From NCBI RefSeq assembly GCF_044324875.1, contig NZ_CP172185.1: a stretch of DNA of 64,000 bases, one strand, 5' to 3'. Of this stretch, positions 15,886 through 59,357 are shown piece after piece. Origin of the DNA: Escherichia coli (GTDB taxonomy: Bacteria > Pseudomonadota > Gammaproteobacteria > Enterobacterales > Enterobacteriaceae). Position numbers and translations under genes: made by a program. The notes under the pieces were generated by a model, which made no database searches, was not told where the DNA came from, and was given only the letters and a program-made list of their open reading frames with translations. Within the stretch, counting starts at the first letter, position 1. Each line of letters starts with the position of its first letter.

Positions 15886-16206
15886 TTGCATAAGGCTATC
15901 AGCTATATCCTGAAACGACCTGATGAGCTGTGCCGTTTTCTGGATGATGGCTCTGTGCCACCGGACAACAATATCTGCGAACGAGCCATCCGCCCGGTCA
16001 CGCTGGGGCGAAAGGCATGGTTATTCGCAGGCTCGCTGATGGCCGGCAAACGCGCGGCACAGATAATGAGTCTTCTGGAAACAGCAAAGCGTAATGGTCT
16101 GGAGCCACATGCCTGGCTGACGGACGTACTGACGCGCCTGCCGGAGTGGCCTGAGGACCGACTGGCTGAGCTGCTGCCTCTTGAGGGATTTACCTTCTCC
16201 GGGTGA
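15886..16206 (+). pseudogene. IS66-family transposase TnpC, C-terminal fragment
   Basis: 106 aa with DNNICERAIRPVTLGRKAWLFAGS, parallel to the C-terminus of the intact TnpC at 23005-24543; no N-terminal part or companion orfs. Confidence 0.75.
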
Positions 16207-16324: not shown

Positions 16325-16545
16325 CTGCACGTCAGCGCCTCCCTTACCCTGGTCAGGACTTCACTGCCTGCCACAAACTCCCGTGTCAGTACTTCGCGGC
16401 CTGACGCGCTCACCCTACTCAGTCCTTCAGAGCCCGCCTCCGGTACCTGGCAAGGCAGACGCCGGGGCGCAATAAAATAAATCAACCATCGCAGGGCGGC
16501 GATCATTCGCAACAACCGCTGATGACGAGCCCAGAAACGTGTCAA
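16325..16545. repeat. copy A of a ~220-bp diverged non-coding repeat (second copy at 22395-22625)
   Basis: about 75 percent identity to 22395-22625, shared core AATAAAATAAATCA-CCATCGCAGGGCG-CGATCATTCGCA and paired internal direct repeats CCCTGGTCAGGACTTCAC / CCGTGTCAGTACTTCGC. Confidence 0.6.
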
Positions 16546-16554
16546 GACGATTTC

Positions 16555-16689
16555 ACCGGAACCGTTTACCCCAAGCAGAGCGGCAATAGATCCGCCTGGT
16601 ACTGTGAAGGATGCATCGCGCAGTGCTTTCTGCCCGTTTCGCCAGGTGACAGTAACGCCATTAACGACAATACCCGCAGATTGCATCAT
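16555..16689 (-). pseudogene. sitB: sitB 5' fragment (ABC transporter ATPase, truncated inside the Walker A motif)
   Basis: first ~45 codons resemble SitB-type ATPase (SFTVPGGSIAALLGVNGSG) then diverge into repeat A; start overlaps sitA stop. Confidence 0.6.
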
Positions 16690-22394: not shown

Positions 22395-22625
22395 ATGGGG
22401 AATTTGTTAACGTCGCCCTTACCATGGTCAGGATTTCACGCCCTGTTACAAACACTCGTGTCAGTATTTCTTGGCCCTATTCAGTACTCCTCACTACCTG
22501 CCAACGACACCGCTAGGAAAAACGCCCGCGTGTAATAAAATAAATCAGCCATCGCAGGGCGCCGATCATTCGCATGCATCGCTGATGACGCGCCCAAACA
22601 AGCGTCAAGATGAGTTAACCTGAAC
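22395..22625. repeat. copy B of the ~220-bp diverged repeat
   Basis: aligned by eye to 16325-16545; lies between the convergent aldolase gene and the lsrK remnant. Confidence 0.6.
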
Positions 22626-22631
22626 AATTCG

Positions 22632-22968
22632 TTATAAGCCCGGTGCCTTCCACAAAGAAGTTGTCAACCCGTGATCGACCAAGCTCAACTGTTCCTGATA
22701 TACAGCCCGCCATTTTTCGAGCAATTCCTGATAAAGCTCATGTTTTCTTTTGTCCGGAACATGCTACCTTTCCCAGCTCACCAGGCATTCTCCCGTTTCG
22801 TCCATAGATGAGTAGATACCTGCCCCTACACCAGCAGCAATCGCACAGCCCAGTGCCGTTGCCTCTTTGACTACAGGAACATTAACTGGTAGCCCTGACA
22901 CATCAGCCAGAATCTGGCTCCAGAGTTCTCCTTTTGCACCACCTCCCGCAAATACCAGAGATGAAGGG
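22632..22968 (-). pseudogene. lsrK: lsrK (autoinducer-2 kinase, FGGY family) 3' end, distal piece, separated from the rest by the IS66 insertion
   Basis: reverse-strand translation ...[47 protein letters not shown]...[13 protein letters not shown]. Confidence 0.65.
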
Positions 22969-23004
22969 TAAGCGTACAGCGAGGGCCGTATTGACGGGGA
23001 TGTG

Positions 23005-24543
23005 TTATTCAGCTGGCAGTGCTATGCGCCACGGAAGCAGTTCGCTGACCCGGTTGACCGGCCAGTCTGCTATGACGCCAAGCACATGGCGAAGGTAGCT
23101 TTCTGGATCCACGTCATTCAGTTTGCACGTCCCTATCAGGCTGTACAGTAGCGCTCCCCGCTCACCACCATGGCCAGAGCCGAAGAACAGGAAGTTTTTA
23201 CGACCCAGACTTACCGCCCGCAGGGCATTTTCAGCGATGTTGTTGTCGATTTCCACCCAGCCATCGTTCGCATAGTACGTCAGTGCCGGCCACTGGTTAA
23301 GTGCGTACGCGAACGCCTTCGCCAACTCTGAGTGTCGCGACAGGGTCTTCATCTTTTCACGCAACCAGCTTTCCAGGGATTTCAACAGCGGTTTCGTTTT
23401 TCGCTGACGTTCAGCAAGCCGCTGCTCTGCCGGCATTCCCCTTATATCCGCCTCTATGGCGTACAACTGACCGATCTGCTCCAGGGCTTCTTCCGTCAGT
23501 GCTGACGGGATGCGGACGTGCACATCGTGGATCTTTCGGCGGGCATGAGCCCAGCAGGCAGCTTCCGTTATCCCACCATTGCGATACAGCTCGTTGAACC
23601 CGGCGTACGCATCCGCTTGCAGCACACCGCTGAAGCAAGCAAGATGAGTCTGCGGATGGATGCCTTTTCTGTCCGGGCTGTAAGCGAACCACACTGCAGG
23701 TGCCAACGCTGACCCGGCATTGCGGTCATCACGAACATACGCCCACAACCGCCCGGTCTTCGTCTTCTTATTACCCGGCATCAGTACCTGGACCGGGGTA
23801 TCATCGGCATGGAGTTTGCCGTCAGTCATGACATAGCCATGAAGCGCCTCTTCCAGCGGAGACAGCAGCCGGCAGCATGCATCCACCCAGCCCGACAGCA
23901 GTGAACGGCTCAGCTCCACACCTTGCCGGCCGTATATTTCTGACTGGCGATACAGCGGGGTGTGCTCTGCATACTTCGAGGTCAGCACGCGGGCCAGCAG
24001 CCCCGGTCCGGCGATACCCCGCTCGATGGGCCGCGAAGGTGCAGGTGCCTGCACGATGGCATCGCACTGAGTACAGGCATGTTTTTCCCGTACCGTCCGG
24101 ATAACCCGGAAGGCGCTACGCATCAACTCCAGCTGTTCGGCGGTATCCTCGCCCAGATAGCTCAGTGAACCGCCGCAGTTCGGGCAGCACGGCGCCGCAG
24201 GCAACAGTCGCTTTTCGTCACGGGGTAGTGATTCAGGGAACGGCTTACGGATGCGGGTCTGACGCAACGGACGCTGTACTGCCGGGTCATACACCCTACC
24301 AGTCAGCGTATCGCTCTCTTTCTGAAGCCGGTTCAGATCGGCTTCCATTTGTGCGATACGGCGGGAGACTTTTTCGGAACGACTGCCGAAGTTCATCCGG
24401 CGGAGTTTATCCAGCTGCGCCTGCAGATGGTCTATTTCGCGCTCCCGGTTGCTCAGCTTTTCCTGCAGGGCGTGGATCAGCGCTTCCTGTTCGGCCAGGC
24501 GCTGTTTCAGCAGGAAGATGTCGTCAGAAGAGATGTCGTTCAT
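23005..24543 (-). CDS. IS66-family transposase TnpC
   Basis: 512-aa ORF with zinc-finger-like CCPNCGG and C-terminal [12 protein letters not shown] segment. Confidence 0.85.
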
Positions 24544-24592
24544 AAGCCCGTATTTTACCGGGCTTATTCTGTGACAACCAGGATAAAGAGAT

Positions 24593-24940
24593 TTACAGCA
24601 TGGTCAGGGAGGTCAGCAGCCGCTTAGGCTGTCGCCAGTCGATACCTTCCAGCAGCATCGCCAGCTGCGCCTGTGTAAGGAACACTTTGCCATCACGGGC
24701 TGACGGCCAGGCGAAGCGCCCACGCTCCAGCCGTTTGGTCAGGAGGCACAGTCCGTCACCGGTGGACCACAGCAGTTTAACCTGACTGCCGCTGCGGCCC
24801 CGGAAAATGAAAACATGGCCGGACATGGGATCGTCTTTCAGCGCCGTCTGTACTTTCGCAGCCAGGCCGTTGAAGCCATTTCTCATATCGGTGATACCGG
24901 CAACCAGCCAAATTTTGGTCCCGGAAGGTAAAGGGATCAT
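24593..24940 (-). CDS. IS66 Orf2 (TnpB)
   Basis: 115-aa [33 protein letters not shown]... typical IS66 Orf2. Confidence 0.85.
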
Positions 24941-25338
24941 CGCTTCAGTTCCTGTATCAGCAGAGTCAGGAGCTTTTCGCTGACATTGCCATTGAAGCGG
25001 AGCGTCCCGTGCCGGAACGTTACCTCACAGCTGATACTGAGGGTTTCCGGGTCCTCTGCGAGCGATTCTGGCTGTTCGGCAGCTGCATCGAGAGTCACAG
25101 GAAGTAGCTGGGGGCTCTCTGAAGAAGGTAATAGCAGCTTTCCCTCGCGCCATTGTTGTCGCCATTTGAACAACAGATTGGCGTTAATGCCATTTTCAAG
25201 AGCAAGTTTTGAGATGGATATCCCGGGTTCACAGGAGGCAGCAACGAGCTGCTGTTTAAATTCGGGAGGATAATTAGGGCAGCCTTTTCGCCTGCCGGGA
25301 GTCACATTTTTCTGCATATCTGACACTTTGGTTCCCAC
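24937..25338 (-). CDS. IS66 Orf1 (TnpA)
   Basis: 133-aa ORF overlapping Orf2 start by 4 bp. Confidence 0.8.
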   Translation of the reverse strand: MGTKVSDMQKNVTPGRRKGCPNYPPEFKQQLVAASCEPGISISKLALENGINANLLFKWRQQWREGKLLLPSSESPQLLPVTLDAAAEQPESLAEDPETLSISCEVTFRHGTLRFNGNVSEKLLTLLIQELKR

Positions 25339-25409
25339 TACTTATTTGGTGGACACCACTTTGTCTAATTCGTCAGATTCTGACCAGACGGTTCAGGCTG
25401 TACGCTTAC

Positions 25410-25666
25410 GATGAAGGATGGATCCCTGTAAAATCAGCAATCTGCGACAAATTACATGTTGAAACAATGGCTGCATTCTCTTCCAAGGCGCGAAACAAAG
25501 TTGCCTTATTACATTTTTCCGGATCGATCGACAGGTTTAGAAATGAAGGAGCCGCGTGGTACCAACTTTTGAAACGCATCCTGTCAGAGAATATCGGCAT
25601 CACTCCCCATGCTCCTGCTGGTACACGGGAAGCCATTTCCTCCAGTAGTGTATAAGTATCGACTCC
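25410..25666 (-). pseudogene. lsrK: lsrK internal piece (5'-truncated); continues across the IS66 insertion
   Basis: [42 protein letters not shown]... matches the C-terminal third of LsrK; no N-terminal two-thirds present. Confidence 0.6.
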
Positions 25667-25821: not shown

Positions 25822-26240
25822 GTAAGCGGCTCGCCAGAACCGTATTGATATTTACTGAGAGGTCAGATCAACTTTCCAGGGCAACAGATCGCGTACCCGG
25901 TTTGCCGGCCAGTCCTGGATATGCTCAATAACGTAACGCAGCCATTTTTCTGGCTCCACATTGTTCAGACGGCATGTGCCGATCAGTGAGTACAACACCG
26001 CCGCATGTTCGCCACCGCTGTCGGAACCCGCGAAGAGCCAGTTTTTCCGGCCTACGGCCACTCCCCGTAAGGCGTTCTCTGCGATGTTGTTGTCGATTTC
26101 CGCCTGACCATTATGCAGTACACGTTCAGCGCATCCCACTGTTTCGGCAGGCATGCGAACGCTTTTACTGTATCCGGGTGACGCGACAGTGTTTTCATCT
26201 GTTGCTGTATCCAGTCATACTACGCCAGCATCATTGGTAG
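25822..26240 (-). mobile_element. IS66-family remnant: terminal repeat plus frameshifted tnpC 3' fragment
   Basis: GTAAGCGGCTCGCC terminus at 25822; ORF 25852-26154 with [23 protein letters not shown]; upstream homology continues in another frame. Confidence 0.65.
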
Positions 26241-26306
26241 CACCTGGGCTTTTTTTGCCGCAGGCGCTGGTTCGCAGACTACTAAAATAATACGCGGTTT
26301 TTCATT

Positions 26307-27539
26307 TTACGGACGGGCAGCCAGAAGACACAGTTGAAATGCCACATTATACGATTCCTCAAAGGATTTTAGAGGTAGAAACTCAAATATGGAGTGAAAA
26401 TTATGTGCGCCAGTAAAAAAATTAGGCGTCAAAATTCCTCTGGCTGACAGAACTGCACCATCAGTTCCACCACGCATTGGTATCGGTTTTGGTGTAATTC
26501 CCAGCATATTCATGGACTCAAAGAGTAGATCTACAGCACGTCTGTCTTTGTTTAAAGCATTACTAATATTGCTGTAGATATCAGTGATCGTGAACTCAAC
26601 CCTGGCTGTCGGATATCGGGAAGATATTTTATGTGCAACAGCAGCAATCTGTTGTTTTCTGCGAGTAAAACTGGATTGATCAAAATCACGTATACTTGCC
26701 TGTAACACAGCATTACTTTGTCCGGCATTCATACCATTGAACCAGATATAACCTTCACGACCAGCGGTATTCTCCGGTGTTTCAAGGCGATCAAATTCAT
26801 TTATGTAATCACAGGCCATCAGTAATGGATTAACTAATACATTTTTTGCAGACATCGGATGTGCCGTTACACCAGTAAAACGGATCTCTGCAGATGCAGC
26901 GTTAAAGTTTTCATAAACAATCTCTCCTGACTCGCAACAGTCAATTGTCCAGGCAAAGTCAACAGAAAAACGTTGTAAATCAAGAGACTTAGCTCCACGC
27001 AAGCCTGTTTCCTCATCAGGGACAAATGCAACCACAATATCACCATGCTGATGTTCTGAGGTCAGATTCTCCAGCATAGTCATCACTACCGAAACAGCGG
27101 CTTTATTATCAGCCCCTAGTACACTTGTTCCGTCGCTGAAAATAATGTCTTCCCCCCGATATTTCAGAATTTCGGGATGCTCTTTGACCCGCAGCCAGAT
27201 ATCTTTTTCTGCATTGAGACACAAATCTTCACCTGTAAATTTCAAAATTTGTGGATGAATATCCGGAGATAAACCAACATCTACTGTATCAATATGAGTA
27301 ATGAAACCAATTCGAGGCGCACCCGGAATATTACCTTTTTTCACCGCGGTGACCGTTGCATGCTCATCAACAATAATATCGTCCATATCCAGCAACGCCA
27401 GTTCATCTGCAAGTGTCCGGGCCATCTCATACTGTCCTTGTGTGGACGGAAGGGATGCTGAATTTGGGTCACTCTGGCTACTGATTGAAAGGTAGCGAAA
27501 GAAACGTTGGATTAATTGACTGCTTAATGGGGAGTACAT
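26307..27539 (-). CDS. peptidase T-like tripeptidase (M20B family)
   Basis: motifs GADNKAAV, PDEETGLRGA, RGGTDGA parallel to PepT. Confidence 0.7.
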   Translation of the reverse strand: MYSPLSSQLIQRFFRYLSISSQSDPNSASLPSTQGQYEMARTLADELALLDMDDIIVDEHATVTAVKKGNIPGAPRIGFITHIDTVDVGLSPDIHPQILKFTGEDLCLNAEKDIWLRVKEHPEILKYRGEDIIFSDGTSVLGADNKAAVSVVMTMLENLTSEHQHGDIVVAFVPDEETGLRGAKSLDLQRFSVDFAWTIDCCESGEIVYENFNAASAEIRFTGVTAHPMSAKNVLVNPLLMACDYINEFDRLETPENTAGREGYIWFNGMNAGQSNAVLQASIRDFDQSSFTRRKQQIAAVAHKISSRYPTARVEFTITDIYSNISNALNKDRRAVDLLFESMNMLGITPKPIPMRGGTDGAVLSARGILTPNFFTGAHNFHSIFEFLPLKSFEESYNVAFQLCLLAARP

Positions 27540-27657
27540 AACTTTTCCTTCTTTTTTTGTGTTATGAGGTGAATGCAATACGCATTTAATGTTATTTATT
27601 AATCTGTAACCGATGCGGATTCATCACTCCATATTGTCAAAGAAAACAGGAAAAGTC

Positions 27658-29250
27658 ATGGTAAGAAGATTAGCGACTATTGCACCGTTACTGGTTGCGT
27701 TGGGTGTAAGCTCAACTGTTTATGCAAAGACACTGGTTTACTGCTCTGAAGGCTCACCTGAGAGTTTTAATCCTCAGCTTTATACTTCGGGGACCAGTGT
27801 TGATGCAAGTGCTGTTCCGGTGTATAACCGACTGGTTGATTTTAAGGTGGGCACTACTGTGCTGGTTCCCAGCCTGGCTGAACGATGGGAAATCAGTGGT
27901 GACGGGAAAGCATATACTTTTTATCTGCGTAAAGGCGTTAAATTTCACAGTAATAAATACTTTACTCCAACGCGAGAGTTTAATGCTGATGATGTTATTT
28001 TTTCATTTATGCGCCAGAAGGATCCTGGTCATCCATATCACCAGGTTTCTGGTGGAACGTATTCTAATTTTGAAAGTCTGGAATTCAGTTCACTCATAAC
28101 CAGTATCGACAGAGTTGATGATCATACAGTTCGCTTTAATCTTTCACATCCGGAGGCTCCCTTTATTGCTGATTTAGCCTGGTATTTTGCTTCTGTTTTA
28201 TCCGCTGAATATGCTGATGCTATGCTTAAAGCCGGAACACCTGAACGGGTTGATATGAATCCAATTGGGACAGGGCCATATCAACTCAAACAATATCAGA
28301 AAGATTCGCGTATTTTATTTACGGCTTTTGATGATTACTGGGAGGGGAAAGCAAAACTGGAACGCATTGTTTTCAGTATCACACCAGATTCCTCAGTGCG
28401 TCTGGCTAAACTGGAGAAAAATGAGTGTCAGGTGATGCCGTTTCCTAATCCATCAGATCTTTCCAGAATCAAAAAAAATCCGGCTCTTAAATTGATGAGT
28501 AAAGCCGGACTTAATACAGGTTTTCTTGCTTTCAATACGCAAAAAGCTCCTCTGGATAATGTAAAAGTTCGTCAGGCACTGGCAACAGCAATTAATAAAA
28601 ATGCCATTATAGATGCTGTATTTCAGGGGACTGGTAGTGCTGCTAAAAATCTGCTGCCACCAGGAGTATGGAGTGCAGACAGTGAATTGAAAGATTATGA
28701 ATATGATCCAGAAAAAGCCAGATCATTGCTAAAAGAAGCTGGTTTTGATAATGGAATGACTATTGATCTTTGGGCGATGCCAGTTCAACGCCCTTATAAC
28801 CCAAACGCTAAACGAATGGCCGAAATGATTCAGGCTGACTGGGCAAAAGTGGGAGTAAAAACAAACATTATCACTTTTGAATGGGGGGAATATCTTAATC
28901 GTATAAAGAACGGAGAGCATCAGGCTGCGTTGATGGGATGGACAACCGCAACAGGTGATCCTGATAATTTTTTTGGTCCACTCTTTACCTGCACTTCTGC
29001 TAACGGTGGTTCTAATTCCGCGAAGTGGTGCTACAAACCTTTCGATGAAATTATTTCTCAGGCTAAAGTAATAACTGATCAGGAAAAACGAGCAGTGCTC
29101 TATAAAAAAGCACAACAGATGATGCATGAACAAATACCAGCGGTGATGATTGCACATTCCACCATTTTTGAACCAATACGCAGTGAAGTCACAGGTTATG
29201 AAATAGATCCATTTGGTAAACATATTTTTTATCAGGTTGATATAAAATAA
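27658..29250 (+). CDS. ABC transporter periplasmic substrate-binding protein, family 5 (DppA/OppA-like peptide-binding)
   Basis: signal peptide plus SBP_bac_5-like length and composition; no permease or ATPase genes adjacent. Confidence 0.65.
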   Translation: MVRRLATIAPLLVALGVSSTVYAKTLVYCSEGSPESFNPQLYTSGTSVDASAVPVYNRLVDFKVGTTVLVPSLAERWEISGDGKAYTFYLRKGVKFHSNKYFTPTREFNADDVIFSFMRQKDPGHPYHQVSGGTYSNFESLEFSSLITSIDRVDDHTVRFNLSHPEAPFIADLAWYFASVLSAEYADAMLKAGTPERVDMNPIGTGPYQLKQYQKDSRILFTAFDDYWEGKAKLERIVFSITPDSSVRLAKLEKNECQVMPFPNPSDLSRIKKNPALKLMSKAGLNTGFLAFNTQKAPLDNVKVRQALATAINKNAIIDAVFQGTGSAAKNLLPPGVWSADSELKDYEYDPEKARSLLKEAGFDNGMTIDLWAMPVQRPYNPNAKRMAEMIQADWAKVGVKTNIITFEWGEYLNRIKNGEHQAALMGWTTATGDPDNFFGPLFTCTSANGGSNSAKWCYKPFDEIISQAKVITDQEKRAVLYKKAQQMMHEQIPAVMIAHSTIFEPIRSEVTGYEIDPFGKHIFYQVDIK

Positions 29251-30349
29251 CAGGTGTAAGCTCCGTCTGTGACGTCTGGTGATAGTTGTCCAGTCTGGTA
29301 ACAATAGCGTCCATCTATACAGATGGACGCGAATGATGAATTTTCAGACAACAAGATATTGATGGTTTTCGTTTTTATCTGCCCGACGCATTACGTCTAA
29401 TATTCGAAGAACAATTATCTGTCTGGTTAATCGCTCATCAGTCAGGGCTAAGTCATTTCACCATCACGATTTCTTTTAACGATTACCCGAATGAGCAAAG
29501 TGAGGATGATGCCATGACGCAGGTCAGAGCGACCAGCACCGCGACAATTAATAAAACAGGAAGGCTGCGCGTTTCAGACAGTGATGTCAACATAAACTAT
29601 CAGTAACGTTAACTGCATCAGAAGCACAAGTATGGATTTTGCCATTGTGCAGAACGACTTGTCCATGGGAAATAATAAATTTAATAAAAAAAGAAAGATA
29701 TGGTTGCAAATAGTATAATATCCCGGGCAACGATCCTGATTTTCTCAATACATGTTTTCCTCACGTATTTGTTCTTCAAAGAGCAATCAGCATCTGTTAC
29801 TGAATGGTTGTTATAAGCATTAAAAGAATAACGGGAAGTCGGTGACGTGGGGATATGTCGCGTGTTGAATTATACAAAGGGCCGACATCTTCATGGTGTC
29901 GGCCAGTCATAAGTGCCAGATATTAACCGTCAGTTACAGGGGGTAACCGCAGGAAACAGGCTACGCTCCGGGTAACGGGTTATCAATAGTTACTTATTTG
30001 CTTAATTTAATTAATTTTGTTCTGCGTCATTGCGTTTCCTTACTGGTATAAATAATGATCGATTGCTTTTCGCATGAGCATCAGAATTTGTCGTAATTTG
30101 AGGTACTGTCGCTGCACATGCAGGAATATGGTTCTGTCAGCGACAGATTGCCGTTGCTGACCGGAATGTTCAGGCTGGATGGTGATATTACAACTGATAT
30201 TGCTGTGCTGATGGCAGAATGGTAAACGTTAAGTGCGCGTTCCAGGCAATGAAGGCAAACACGTCATGACAGCAACGCAAAACAAACCAAGAACGCGCAG
30301 TATTTTTTATCCCGAATGAAAGCGATTGTCCATATCCGGTAATAAATAT

Positions 30350-30601
30350 TCAGCAGTATGTAAAGTGCGGTTTGCCCGGCTCTGGTGGAAGGGGCTCCAG
30401 ATACACATCATCAACAAACACACACGGGAAGTTATCCACCGGGCAGCCTGCACGGTCAGCCATATCCCGCAGCGTCACACTGTGCTTCGCGACATCAATA
30501 AACACAACATCCGGTTCCATTTCATCGGGGATTCGCGTTGCGTGATGCATGATGCGATGGACTGAAGGGCAGTGCCGGTAACCAAAAACACGTATACGCA
30601 T
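30350..30601 (-). CDS. glutaredoxin-like small protein (putative)
   Basis: 83-aa ORF MRIRVFGYRHCPS... with a glutaredoxin-like beta1-CPxx layout; weak. Confidence 0.3.
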   Translation of the reverse strand: MRIRVFGYRHCPSVHRIMHHATRIPDEMEPDVVFIDVAKHSVTLRDMADRAGCPVDNFPCVFVDDVYLEPLPPEPGKPHFTYC

Positions 30602-30891
30602 GATGTACCTCCTGGTTGCAGGGTGACTGTATCATCAGACCTTATCATGCGTTTAAAAAATGTCCGGCAACTCACACTTTTCGGTAAGGAGGTGGCTATT
30701 ACTGCAAATGATGATGTCTCGGTTTTTATTTTTTATTCAATATTTTCATCCTGTTATTGTTATTATGTTTGTCCATACCCTGTGTGGTTCCCTGCGTATT
30801 CCGCTCTATTCGATCACGGATTGGCATCGAAGTCCGATCAGCGATTCGCATCCATTCGATCAACCGGGAACTTAACTTTTTCTACCGCTTT

Positions 30892-31647
30892 TTAACGCGT
30901 TTTTTCGCTGCTTTCCACTACCGGGGGATTTTTCCTCAGTGACTCTCCCTGAAGGACCACTCGGTGTGAGTTATGTACCAGTCTGTCCAGGATGGCATCT
31001 GCTGTTGTTGGGTTCTCCATCAGACCATGCCATTTATCTACCGGGAACTGGCTTACCACTATCGTGCTGCTTTGTCCGTAACGATCCTCTATGAGCTCCA
31101 GAAGGTCATTACACTGGGCGTTACTTAACTGTTCCAGCCCCAGATCGTCCAGGATTAGAACCTGTATTTTTTGCAACTGTTTCAGATATTTCAGCCAGCT
31201 GCCATCAACACGTCCCTGAGCCAGTTGTTCCAGTAATCGCCCGGTTCTACAGTACCGGACGCTGTGTTTCTGTCGACATGCCTGTTCGCCCAGCGCATTG
31301 GCTATCCAGCTCTTGCCACATCCTGTCGGACCGGTTATCAGCAGGTTTTTCCTGTGGGTTATGTAGTGGCCGTTCAGCAGTTCTCTCATCTGTTCAGCCC
31401 GCAGACCTCTTGAGGCCGGATAGCGCAGCCCTTCCGGTGTTGCCTGGTATTTCAGGCCGGCATTTTTTCTCAACCGTGCCACACGGCTGTTTTCCCTGCT
31501 CAGAAGCTCGTCATCAACCAGCAGCGTCAGCCTTTCCTCGAACGACAGTTCGTCGTAGGTCTGAGGCGTTTCCCGCTGCCGTATCAGGCTCCCGGCCATC
31601 GCCGGGAGTTTCAGTTGGGTCAGTTTGTTTAACAGGTTATCACTCAT
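30892..31647 (-). CDS. IS21-family helper ATPase IstB
   Basis: Walker A GPTGCGKS, Walker B ILDDLG; start placed at MSDNLL inside the longer listed ORF. Confidence 0.8.
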   Translation of the reverse strand: MSDNLLNKLTQLKLPAMAGSLIRQRETPQTYDELSFEERLTLLVDDELLSRENSRVARLRKNAGLKYQATPEGLRYPASRGLRAEQMRELLNGHYITHRKNLLITGPTGCGKSWIANALGEQACRQKHSVRYCRTGRLLEQLAQGRVDGSWLKYLKQLQKIQVLILDDLGLEQLSNAQCNDLLELIEDRYGQSSTIVVSQFPVDKWHGLMENPTTADAILDRLVHNSHRVVLQGESLRKNPPVVESSEKTR

Positions 31648-31663
31648 ACTGTTGTTCCTTCTG

Positions 31664-58880: not shown

Positions 58881-58927
58881 GGTATTGACTTTCTTTGTGT
58901 GAGCTTTAAATATGGCAGGGCTAACTT

Positions 58928-59110
58928 GTCGCTCCGGCGACCACCAATGTTCCATAGTGGCCTGTGAGGAACGCCTTCGGGTGGCCCATGTCGCTTCAGC
59001 GACCACCAATGTTCCATGTGGCCTGTGAGGAACGCCTTCGGGTGGCCCACGTCGCTCCGGCGACCACCAATGCTTCATCTGACCTGTGAGGAGCGCCTTC
59101 GGGTGGTCAG
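58928..59110. repeat. three tandem ~61-bp repeats
   Basis: GTCGCTCCGGCGACCACCAATGTTCCAT-GTGGCCTGTGAGGAACGCCTTCGGGTGGCCCA x3 with a few substitutions. Confidence 0.8.
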
Positions 59111-59357
59111 TTTTACACCTCCTGAGCCTGAAAGGAGCTGTGCGTACTGAAGGGATATATTCCCGGAAGTACGGGCAAATCTGCACACCTTTGAGAGCAG
59201 ATGTCACTGCGGTTTTCCGTGATGATGAAGGCTTTTTTTACTGCACAGACAGCCGGAAATTCAGCTGATTCCGGCATCCCCGACGGGAACTATCACTCCC
59301 GTCAGGGCTGGTGATGTTCTCCGTCATATCTTTTTTTCACTCCATGGAGAAATCATC

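Follow-up and report, generated by a model that had tools for sequence, protein, structure and literature searches.

In the 64,000-nucleotide stretch of the Escherichia coli contig NZ_CP172185.1 analysed here (the window), pepT and a lone gene for an ABC-type substrate-binding protein lie back to back at 26307-29250. This segment was found in only 1 of 5,426 complete E. coli genomes, and permease and ATPase genes are not annotated beside the pair in the sister genome described below. Five bases past the stop codon of the binding-protein gene (29248-29250) stands the hexamer GTAAGC (29256), and beyond it, on the plus strand, come a hairpin and an open frame that has no start codon at its head. 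The features of this locus, and the mobile-element pieces that share the window with it, are collected in Table 1.

Table 1. Features at the locus and other mobile-element pieces in the window
Feature	Coordinates	Strand	Basis or remark
Left terminal inverted repeat (IRL), GTAAGCTCCGTCTGTGACG	29256-29274	+	DNA homology to intact IS66-like elements starts here
Stem-loop GCGTCCATCT-ATAC-AGATGGACGC	29307-29330	+	10-bp stem, 4-nt loop; fold and inverted repeat I1
tnpA start codon and first six codons (MNFQTT + A)	29336-29354	+	Alignment with intact relatives
tnpA codons ~8-50 (helix-turn-helix region)	29355-29484	+	Now +1 frame relative to start codon
Read-through into unrelated island backbone DNA, 41 codons and stop	29485-29607	+	Coding evidence absent
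Apparently intact IS66-family element	22968-25409 (window 22960-25417)	-	tnpA-tnpB-tnpC by tblastn
Right-end fragment of another IS66-family element	25822-26265	-	Right repeat and TnpC residues ~399-527
IS66-family TnpC C-terminal fragment	15886-16179	+	49% identical to C11-type TnpC residues 429-526
IS21-family element (istA 31664-33310, istB 30892-31890)	30793-33431	-	Inserted relative to E. coli ECCNB12-2

A first-pass annotation had described a start-less frame of about 85 codons, ending at 29597, that begins right after a hairpin near 29306-29330. A mechanical list of open reading frames agrees that ATG, GTG and TTG are absent before codon 59, the first being the ATG at 29514. The peptide quoted in the earlier description is exactly that of frame 2, and its extent is corrected to 88 codons (29340-29604); translation of all three plus-strand frames places TGA TGA at 29334-29339 before it and TAA at 29605-29607 after it. 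The hairpin, too, is present, with a folding energy of -17.5 kcal/mol and a z-score of -5.2 against 200 shuffles. Mononucleotide shuffles of the window are expected to hold about 74 frames that run for 88 codons or more without a stop, so that by length alone the frame is within chance. Only homology, and that for the first 48 codons alone, raises it above chance.

By BLASTP, 28 of 38 residues (74%) of the frame are identical to residues 7-44 of an intact 224-residue TnpA (E 2e-15). The frame also covers positions 1-37 of the 190 in the NCBIfam profile NF038385 (IS66_access_TnpA; E 4.9e-6), its 26 bits lying far under the cut-off of 150, as is expected where just 37 positions are present. Over the surviving portion the match is clear; the gene itself is frameshifted and truncated. 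Translated searches of plasmids returned 346 records that match frame residues 5-49 at 64-74% identity, in unannotated DNA. At two of these loci the match is the N terminus of a 191-193-residue open reading frame starting MNSQTAKDITGFRSYLPDALRLRFDEQLSV, which in L004 is followed by an annotated IS66 tnpB. The closest records to that N terminus are annotated as “IS66-like element accessory protein TnpA,” and at three loci (L004, L005, and L007) the annotation places tnpB and tnpC after the matched TnpA features. Searched as DNA (blastn), 29251-29480 has matches in 432 of the 5,426 complete E. coli genomes; in 305 of the 432, one location alone accounts for 80% or more of the query (~81% identity for the top matches), and the matches always lie at the left end of IS66-like elements. 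Pfam gave just CBM39 on the raw frame, below its cut-off (E 0.031), and no match on the repaired 51-residue N terminus. An Rfam search of 29000-30900 (E ≤ 1) gave SNORD52, which we reject as a chance match (20 bits against the 45 needed, E 0.35).

IS66-family elements carry tnpA, tnpB, and a DDE transposase gene within repeats that start GTAAGCG or GTAACCG (PMC12888890), and an 8-bp target duplication is reported for IS66 (PMC6778807); the family features used here were drawn from these two papers and from evidence within the window. The feature following the binding-protein gene has a GTAAGC(G)-type repeat at its left side only. By these features it is classed as a remnant derived from an IS66-family element and not as a member element.

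The likeness extends over the whole of 29256-29484, which aligns with IS66-family left ends at ~81-82% DNA identity over 230-237 bp (E ~1e-60). It is collinear with four independent left ends through the GTAAGC tip, the hairpin, the ATG at 29336, and tnpA up to AACGATT (~29484, codon ~50). Homology to tnpA ends at 29482-29484, so that ~50 of about 224 codons are kept. The repeat sequence GTAAGCTCCGTCTGTGACG is unique in the window, where a second repeat copy is absent, and compared with its counterparts it is 1-2 nt short within the conserved GTAAGCGC tip. For the intact relative L007, 14 of 21 positions agree between the left repeat, GTAAG(G/CG)CTCCGTCTGT.ACG, and the reverse complement of the right repeat (GTAAGCGCCCCGAGAAGTACG), and both carry the GTAAGCGC tip.

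The hairpin lies between the left repeat and the start of tnpA, and because it occupies the same place in the relatives (L003, L004, L005, and L009), it is part of the left end of the insertion sequence. It does not mark the point at which a gene was truncated, the same structure being internal to the left end in intact elements. Its 3' arm contains the purine-rich GATGGA, 8-10 nt 5' of the start codon. IS10 shows fold-back inhibition, and by analogy the hairpin of the live relatives probably hides the tnpA ribosome-binding site in transcripts that read in from outside. A T-run is absent after the hairpin on the plus strand, and a terminator scan flags it on the minus strand only.

The start codon itself is still present at 29336, and its frame (frame 1) reads MMNFQTTRY and then stops at 29360-29362, after nine codons. 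Directly after 29354 (codon 6), two bases that every intact relative has are missing from the window, ACAACAAAAGAT having become ACAACAAGAT; in the alignment, the relatives read ATGAATTCTCAGACAACAAAAGAT and the window reads ATGAATTTTCAGACAACA--AGAT. The frame appears start-less because this 2-nt deletion shifts the reading away from the ATG.

The remainder of the element is missing. With the TnpB and TnpC of a relative as queries, tblastn located neither tnpB nor tnpC downstream of 29484. The sole TnpB match in the window, at 24620-24940, belongs to another element, and TnpC matches elsewhere in it are two fragments (25876-26261, minus strand; 15886-16179, plus strand) and one intact gene (23029-24543, minus strand). 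A right repeat matching the relic is absent from the whole window. About 230 bp of roughly 2,750 bp survive, or ~8% of an element whose length was estimated from L007 and L009. With the right end and the target duplication gone, the insertion is not provable by comparison with an empty site.

We conclude that 29256-29484 is very probably the orphaned left end of an IS66-family insertion sequence, with a frame that reads through into unrelated DNA. Homology, polarity, frameshift, truncation, and the sister strain's decay follow directly from comparison; the order of events we infer as follows. An IS66-family element of ~2.7 kb would have inserted five bases downstream of the substrate-binding-protein gene, with tnpA pointing rightwards. 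Two lesions inactivated it: a 2-nt deletion after codon 6 takes the frame off its ATG, and a breakpoint at ~29484 cost the element the rest of tnpA, all of tnpB and of the DDE transposase gene tnpC, and its right repeat. Once shifted, the reading frame of tnpA is by chance open for 41 further codons in the adjoining non-coding island DNA, which gives the frame of 88 codons. With one end only, no transposase, and no translatable product, the relic cannot move or act.

Between 29482 and ~30274 the window shows 82-85% identity to DNA that is unannotated in other E. coli chromosomes and has different surroundings there; the loci homologous to this backbone are an L002 type in eight genomes and L006. 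In both, indels and stops interrupt the frame and the ATG at 29514 is not conserved, and no Pfam family matched the ten longest stop-free segments of 29470-30360 on both strands, so that by this search the spacer holds no recognisable relic of a gene. The last 41 codons are on these grounds a chance read-through into non-coding island DNA. A minus-strand open reading frame (MDKSFCT..., 29574-29666) recurs in L002 and L006 and was rejected, as its C terminus and length vary (30, 61, and 54 residues); we judge its recurrence to be a by-product of the 82-85% DNA identity. A Hok-like toxin was also considered for the minus-strand peptide at 29483-29593 and was rejected, with no Rfam hok/sok match and an open reading frame that is not conserved. 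In the same backbone, ~95 bp at 29881-29976 with a hairpin, GGCCGACATCTTCATGGTGTCGGCC, occurs twice in L006 (4001-4095 and 4697-4794, ~80% identity) and may represent a small repeat unit.

Three different left-hand sequences adjoin the backbone stretch at an identical first base in different E. coli genomes, one shared by the window and L001, one of the L002 type, and one in L006, with junctions at 29482-29484 in the window, ~6055 in L002, and 4269 in L006. In L006 the backbone homology begins at exactly the base that closes the tnpA homology of both the window and L002. A plain deletion fails to explain this shared boundary base, and the adjoining backbone stretch may have a defined boundary. 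A bolder proposal is that an unrecognised mobile or recombining module, running from 29482 to at least 30274 and inserted into tnpA, has its defined end at 29482-29484, and, separately, that the hairpin is the present 3' end of the binding-protein transcript; we regard this proposal as improbable.

An orphaned left end has a polarity opposite to the one first assigned. The frame had been described as a probable 3' gene remnant, which would put the loss of its 5' part at the hairpin, and the 58 codons without a start and the opening of the frame just past a strong hairpin do fit that description. A remnant it is, with no live gene, but the match is to the N-terminal residues of TnpA (7-44) and to the first positions of NF038385, with no C terminus; the start codon and the upstream insertion-sequence DNA, hairpin included, are present and collinear with intact relatives; and the C-terminal 41 codons are without a homolog and are not open in the related loci. 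A C-terminal remnant is therefore very unlikely, and the alignments show that the 88-codon frame holds the 5' end of tnpA, not its 3' end.

Another alternative is a pure chance frame with no biological origin. The number of such frames expected in shuffles favors this explanation, and the 3' 41 codons do behave like chance read-through. Homology to IS66-family left ends is, however, highly significant at both the DNA and the protein level over the first 48 codons and the 84 bases that precede them. The absence of any homolog, which the first-pass annotation had named as the sign of a chance frame, applies to the last 41 codons only, homologs having been found for 29340-29484. A chance origin is refuted for 29340-29484 and still holds for 29485-29607, and for the frame as a whole it has very little probability.

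The helix-turn-helix at the N terminus of TnpA resembles that of IstA, and the relic might on that account be taken for a 5' remnant of istA from the IS21 family. There is an IS21-family element at a distance of 1.3 kb, tblastn with a related N terminus also matches istA (34-49% identity), an intact TnpA weakly matches the IS21 model NF033546 (E 0.0048), and the IstA encoded in the window matches TnpA at 36% over TnpA residues 20-83. Against this, IS66 tnpA with IS66 tnpB and tnpC behind it accounts for all of the best matches (74-100%), the DNA homology takes in the IS66-type GTAAGC terminus, and the intact relative scores 289 bits on NF038385 versus 16 bits on the IS21 model. An IS21 origin is thus highly improbable; IstA differs in its terminal sequences and gene set and is a far weaker match than IS66 tnpA.

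Megablast of complete E. coli genomes returned a single near-identical genome, that of E. coli ECCNB12-2 (97-99% identical), in which PGAP leaves the region unannotated. ECCNB12-2 has the same 2-nt deletion and, inside the frame, a TGG-to-TAG stop and a further 1-nt deletion; the frame, carrying an extra stop and frameshift there, is under no constraint and drifts freely. Compared with the nearest intact (C11-type) tnpA over 43 comparable codons, the relic has a dS of 0.67 and a dN of 0.14 (dN/dS 0.21). This mostly synonymous divergence indicates descent from a distinct, once-functional IS66-family lineage; judged by the substitutions, it does not look like the slow decay of the common E. coli element.

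No intact parent lineage was found in complete E. coli genomes, PLSDB plasmids, and 100,044 species-representative genomes. Searches of PLSDB plasmids by blastn gave no full-length match above ~81%, and in the 100,044 species genomes a codon-degenerate pattern for DALRLIFEEQLSV had 0 matches and a pattern of the hairpin and start had 1, the already known C11-type element, with nothing closer. The nearest intact relatives being just ~81-82% identical, the parent of the relic was a different insertion sequence within the family.

That the frame is a live small gene, expressing a truncated N-terminal TnpA DNA-binding peptide by programmed frameshifting and acting, for example, as a transposition inhibitor, is scarcely credible. 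The helix-turn-helix region is still open and the divergence is mostly synonymous, but the shift comes from the loss of 2 nt that all intact relatives have, and CAG ACA ACA AGA (in the ATG frame) is not recognised, judged by eye, as a known slippery-site motif. In the sister genome the frame is interrupted by a stop and shifted once more, descent from another, formerly functional IS lineage accounts for the low dN/dS, and a promoter-like site was not found on the plus strand.

The closest known systems are the NF038385-type IS66 elements, represented by the copy in E. coli C11 (NZ_CP010133, 3329919-3334114), which is interrupted by ISEc11, by copies on pAA-type and IncF plasmids, and by an uninterrupted copy on contig JAEWEI010000021.1. 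The named E. coli members of the family are IS679 and ISEc8. The relic shares with these elements the GTAAGC... repeat, a sub-terminal hairpin directly 5' of the tnpA start, the N-terminal helix-turn-helix of tnpA (28 of 38 residues identical), and an equal order and spacing over 230 bp. Unlike them, it has a frameshift after codon 6, has lost 1-2 nt in the repeat tip, and retains only the ~8% noted above, without tnpB, tnpC, a right repeat, or a target duplication.

The window also holds an apparently intact IS66-family element (22968-25409), with the same architecture and the GTAAGC hexamer (GTAAGCGTACAG, against GTAAGCTCCG... in the relic). Unlike the relic it is complete: its two ends carry the identical 12-nt terminus GTAAGCGTACAG, and it is flanked by an 8-bp direct duplication, CCTTCATC; its TnpC is 55% identical to the C11 type. 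The relic is not a copy of this element, since the left end of the latter is without DNA similarity to 29256-29484.

The fragment of another IS66-family element at 25822-26265 has a right repeat, ...GGCGAGCCGCTTAC (reverse complement GTAAGCGGCTCGCC...), and a broken inner side that faces pepT. This fragment and the relic bracket pepT and the binding-protein gene, a layout for which we offer the conjecture that an inversion had one of its breakpoints within a single IS66 copy and that a deletion came later. At the IS21-family element, the flanking alignments overlap by 6 bp, which suggests a target duplication. Elsewhere in the window, a sequence of ~90-100 bp is present at 16477-16562 and 22540-22641, and also in L006 (3832-3933; 80-90% identity). 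Rfam matches at gathering level were an ALIL pseudoknot at 1631-1747 (116 bits) and two adjacent STAXI RNAs at 58927-59233 (62 and 66 bits).

We recommend annotating 29256-29484 as a partial, frameshifted IS66-family tnpA plus left repeat and calling no gene for the 88-codon frame. The relic is an ordinary, non-functional feature of an already known kind and carries little biological weight, being another dead insertion-sequence fragment in a mosaic E. coli island that holds several IS66, IS21, and IS3 pieces. It is also a rearrangement scar directly downstream of the orphan pepT and binding-protein pair, and as such it may help to reconstruct how the island was assembled.
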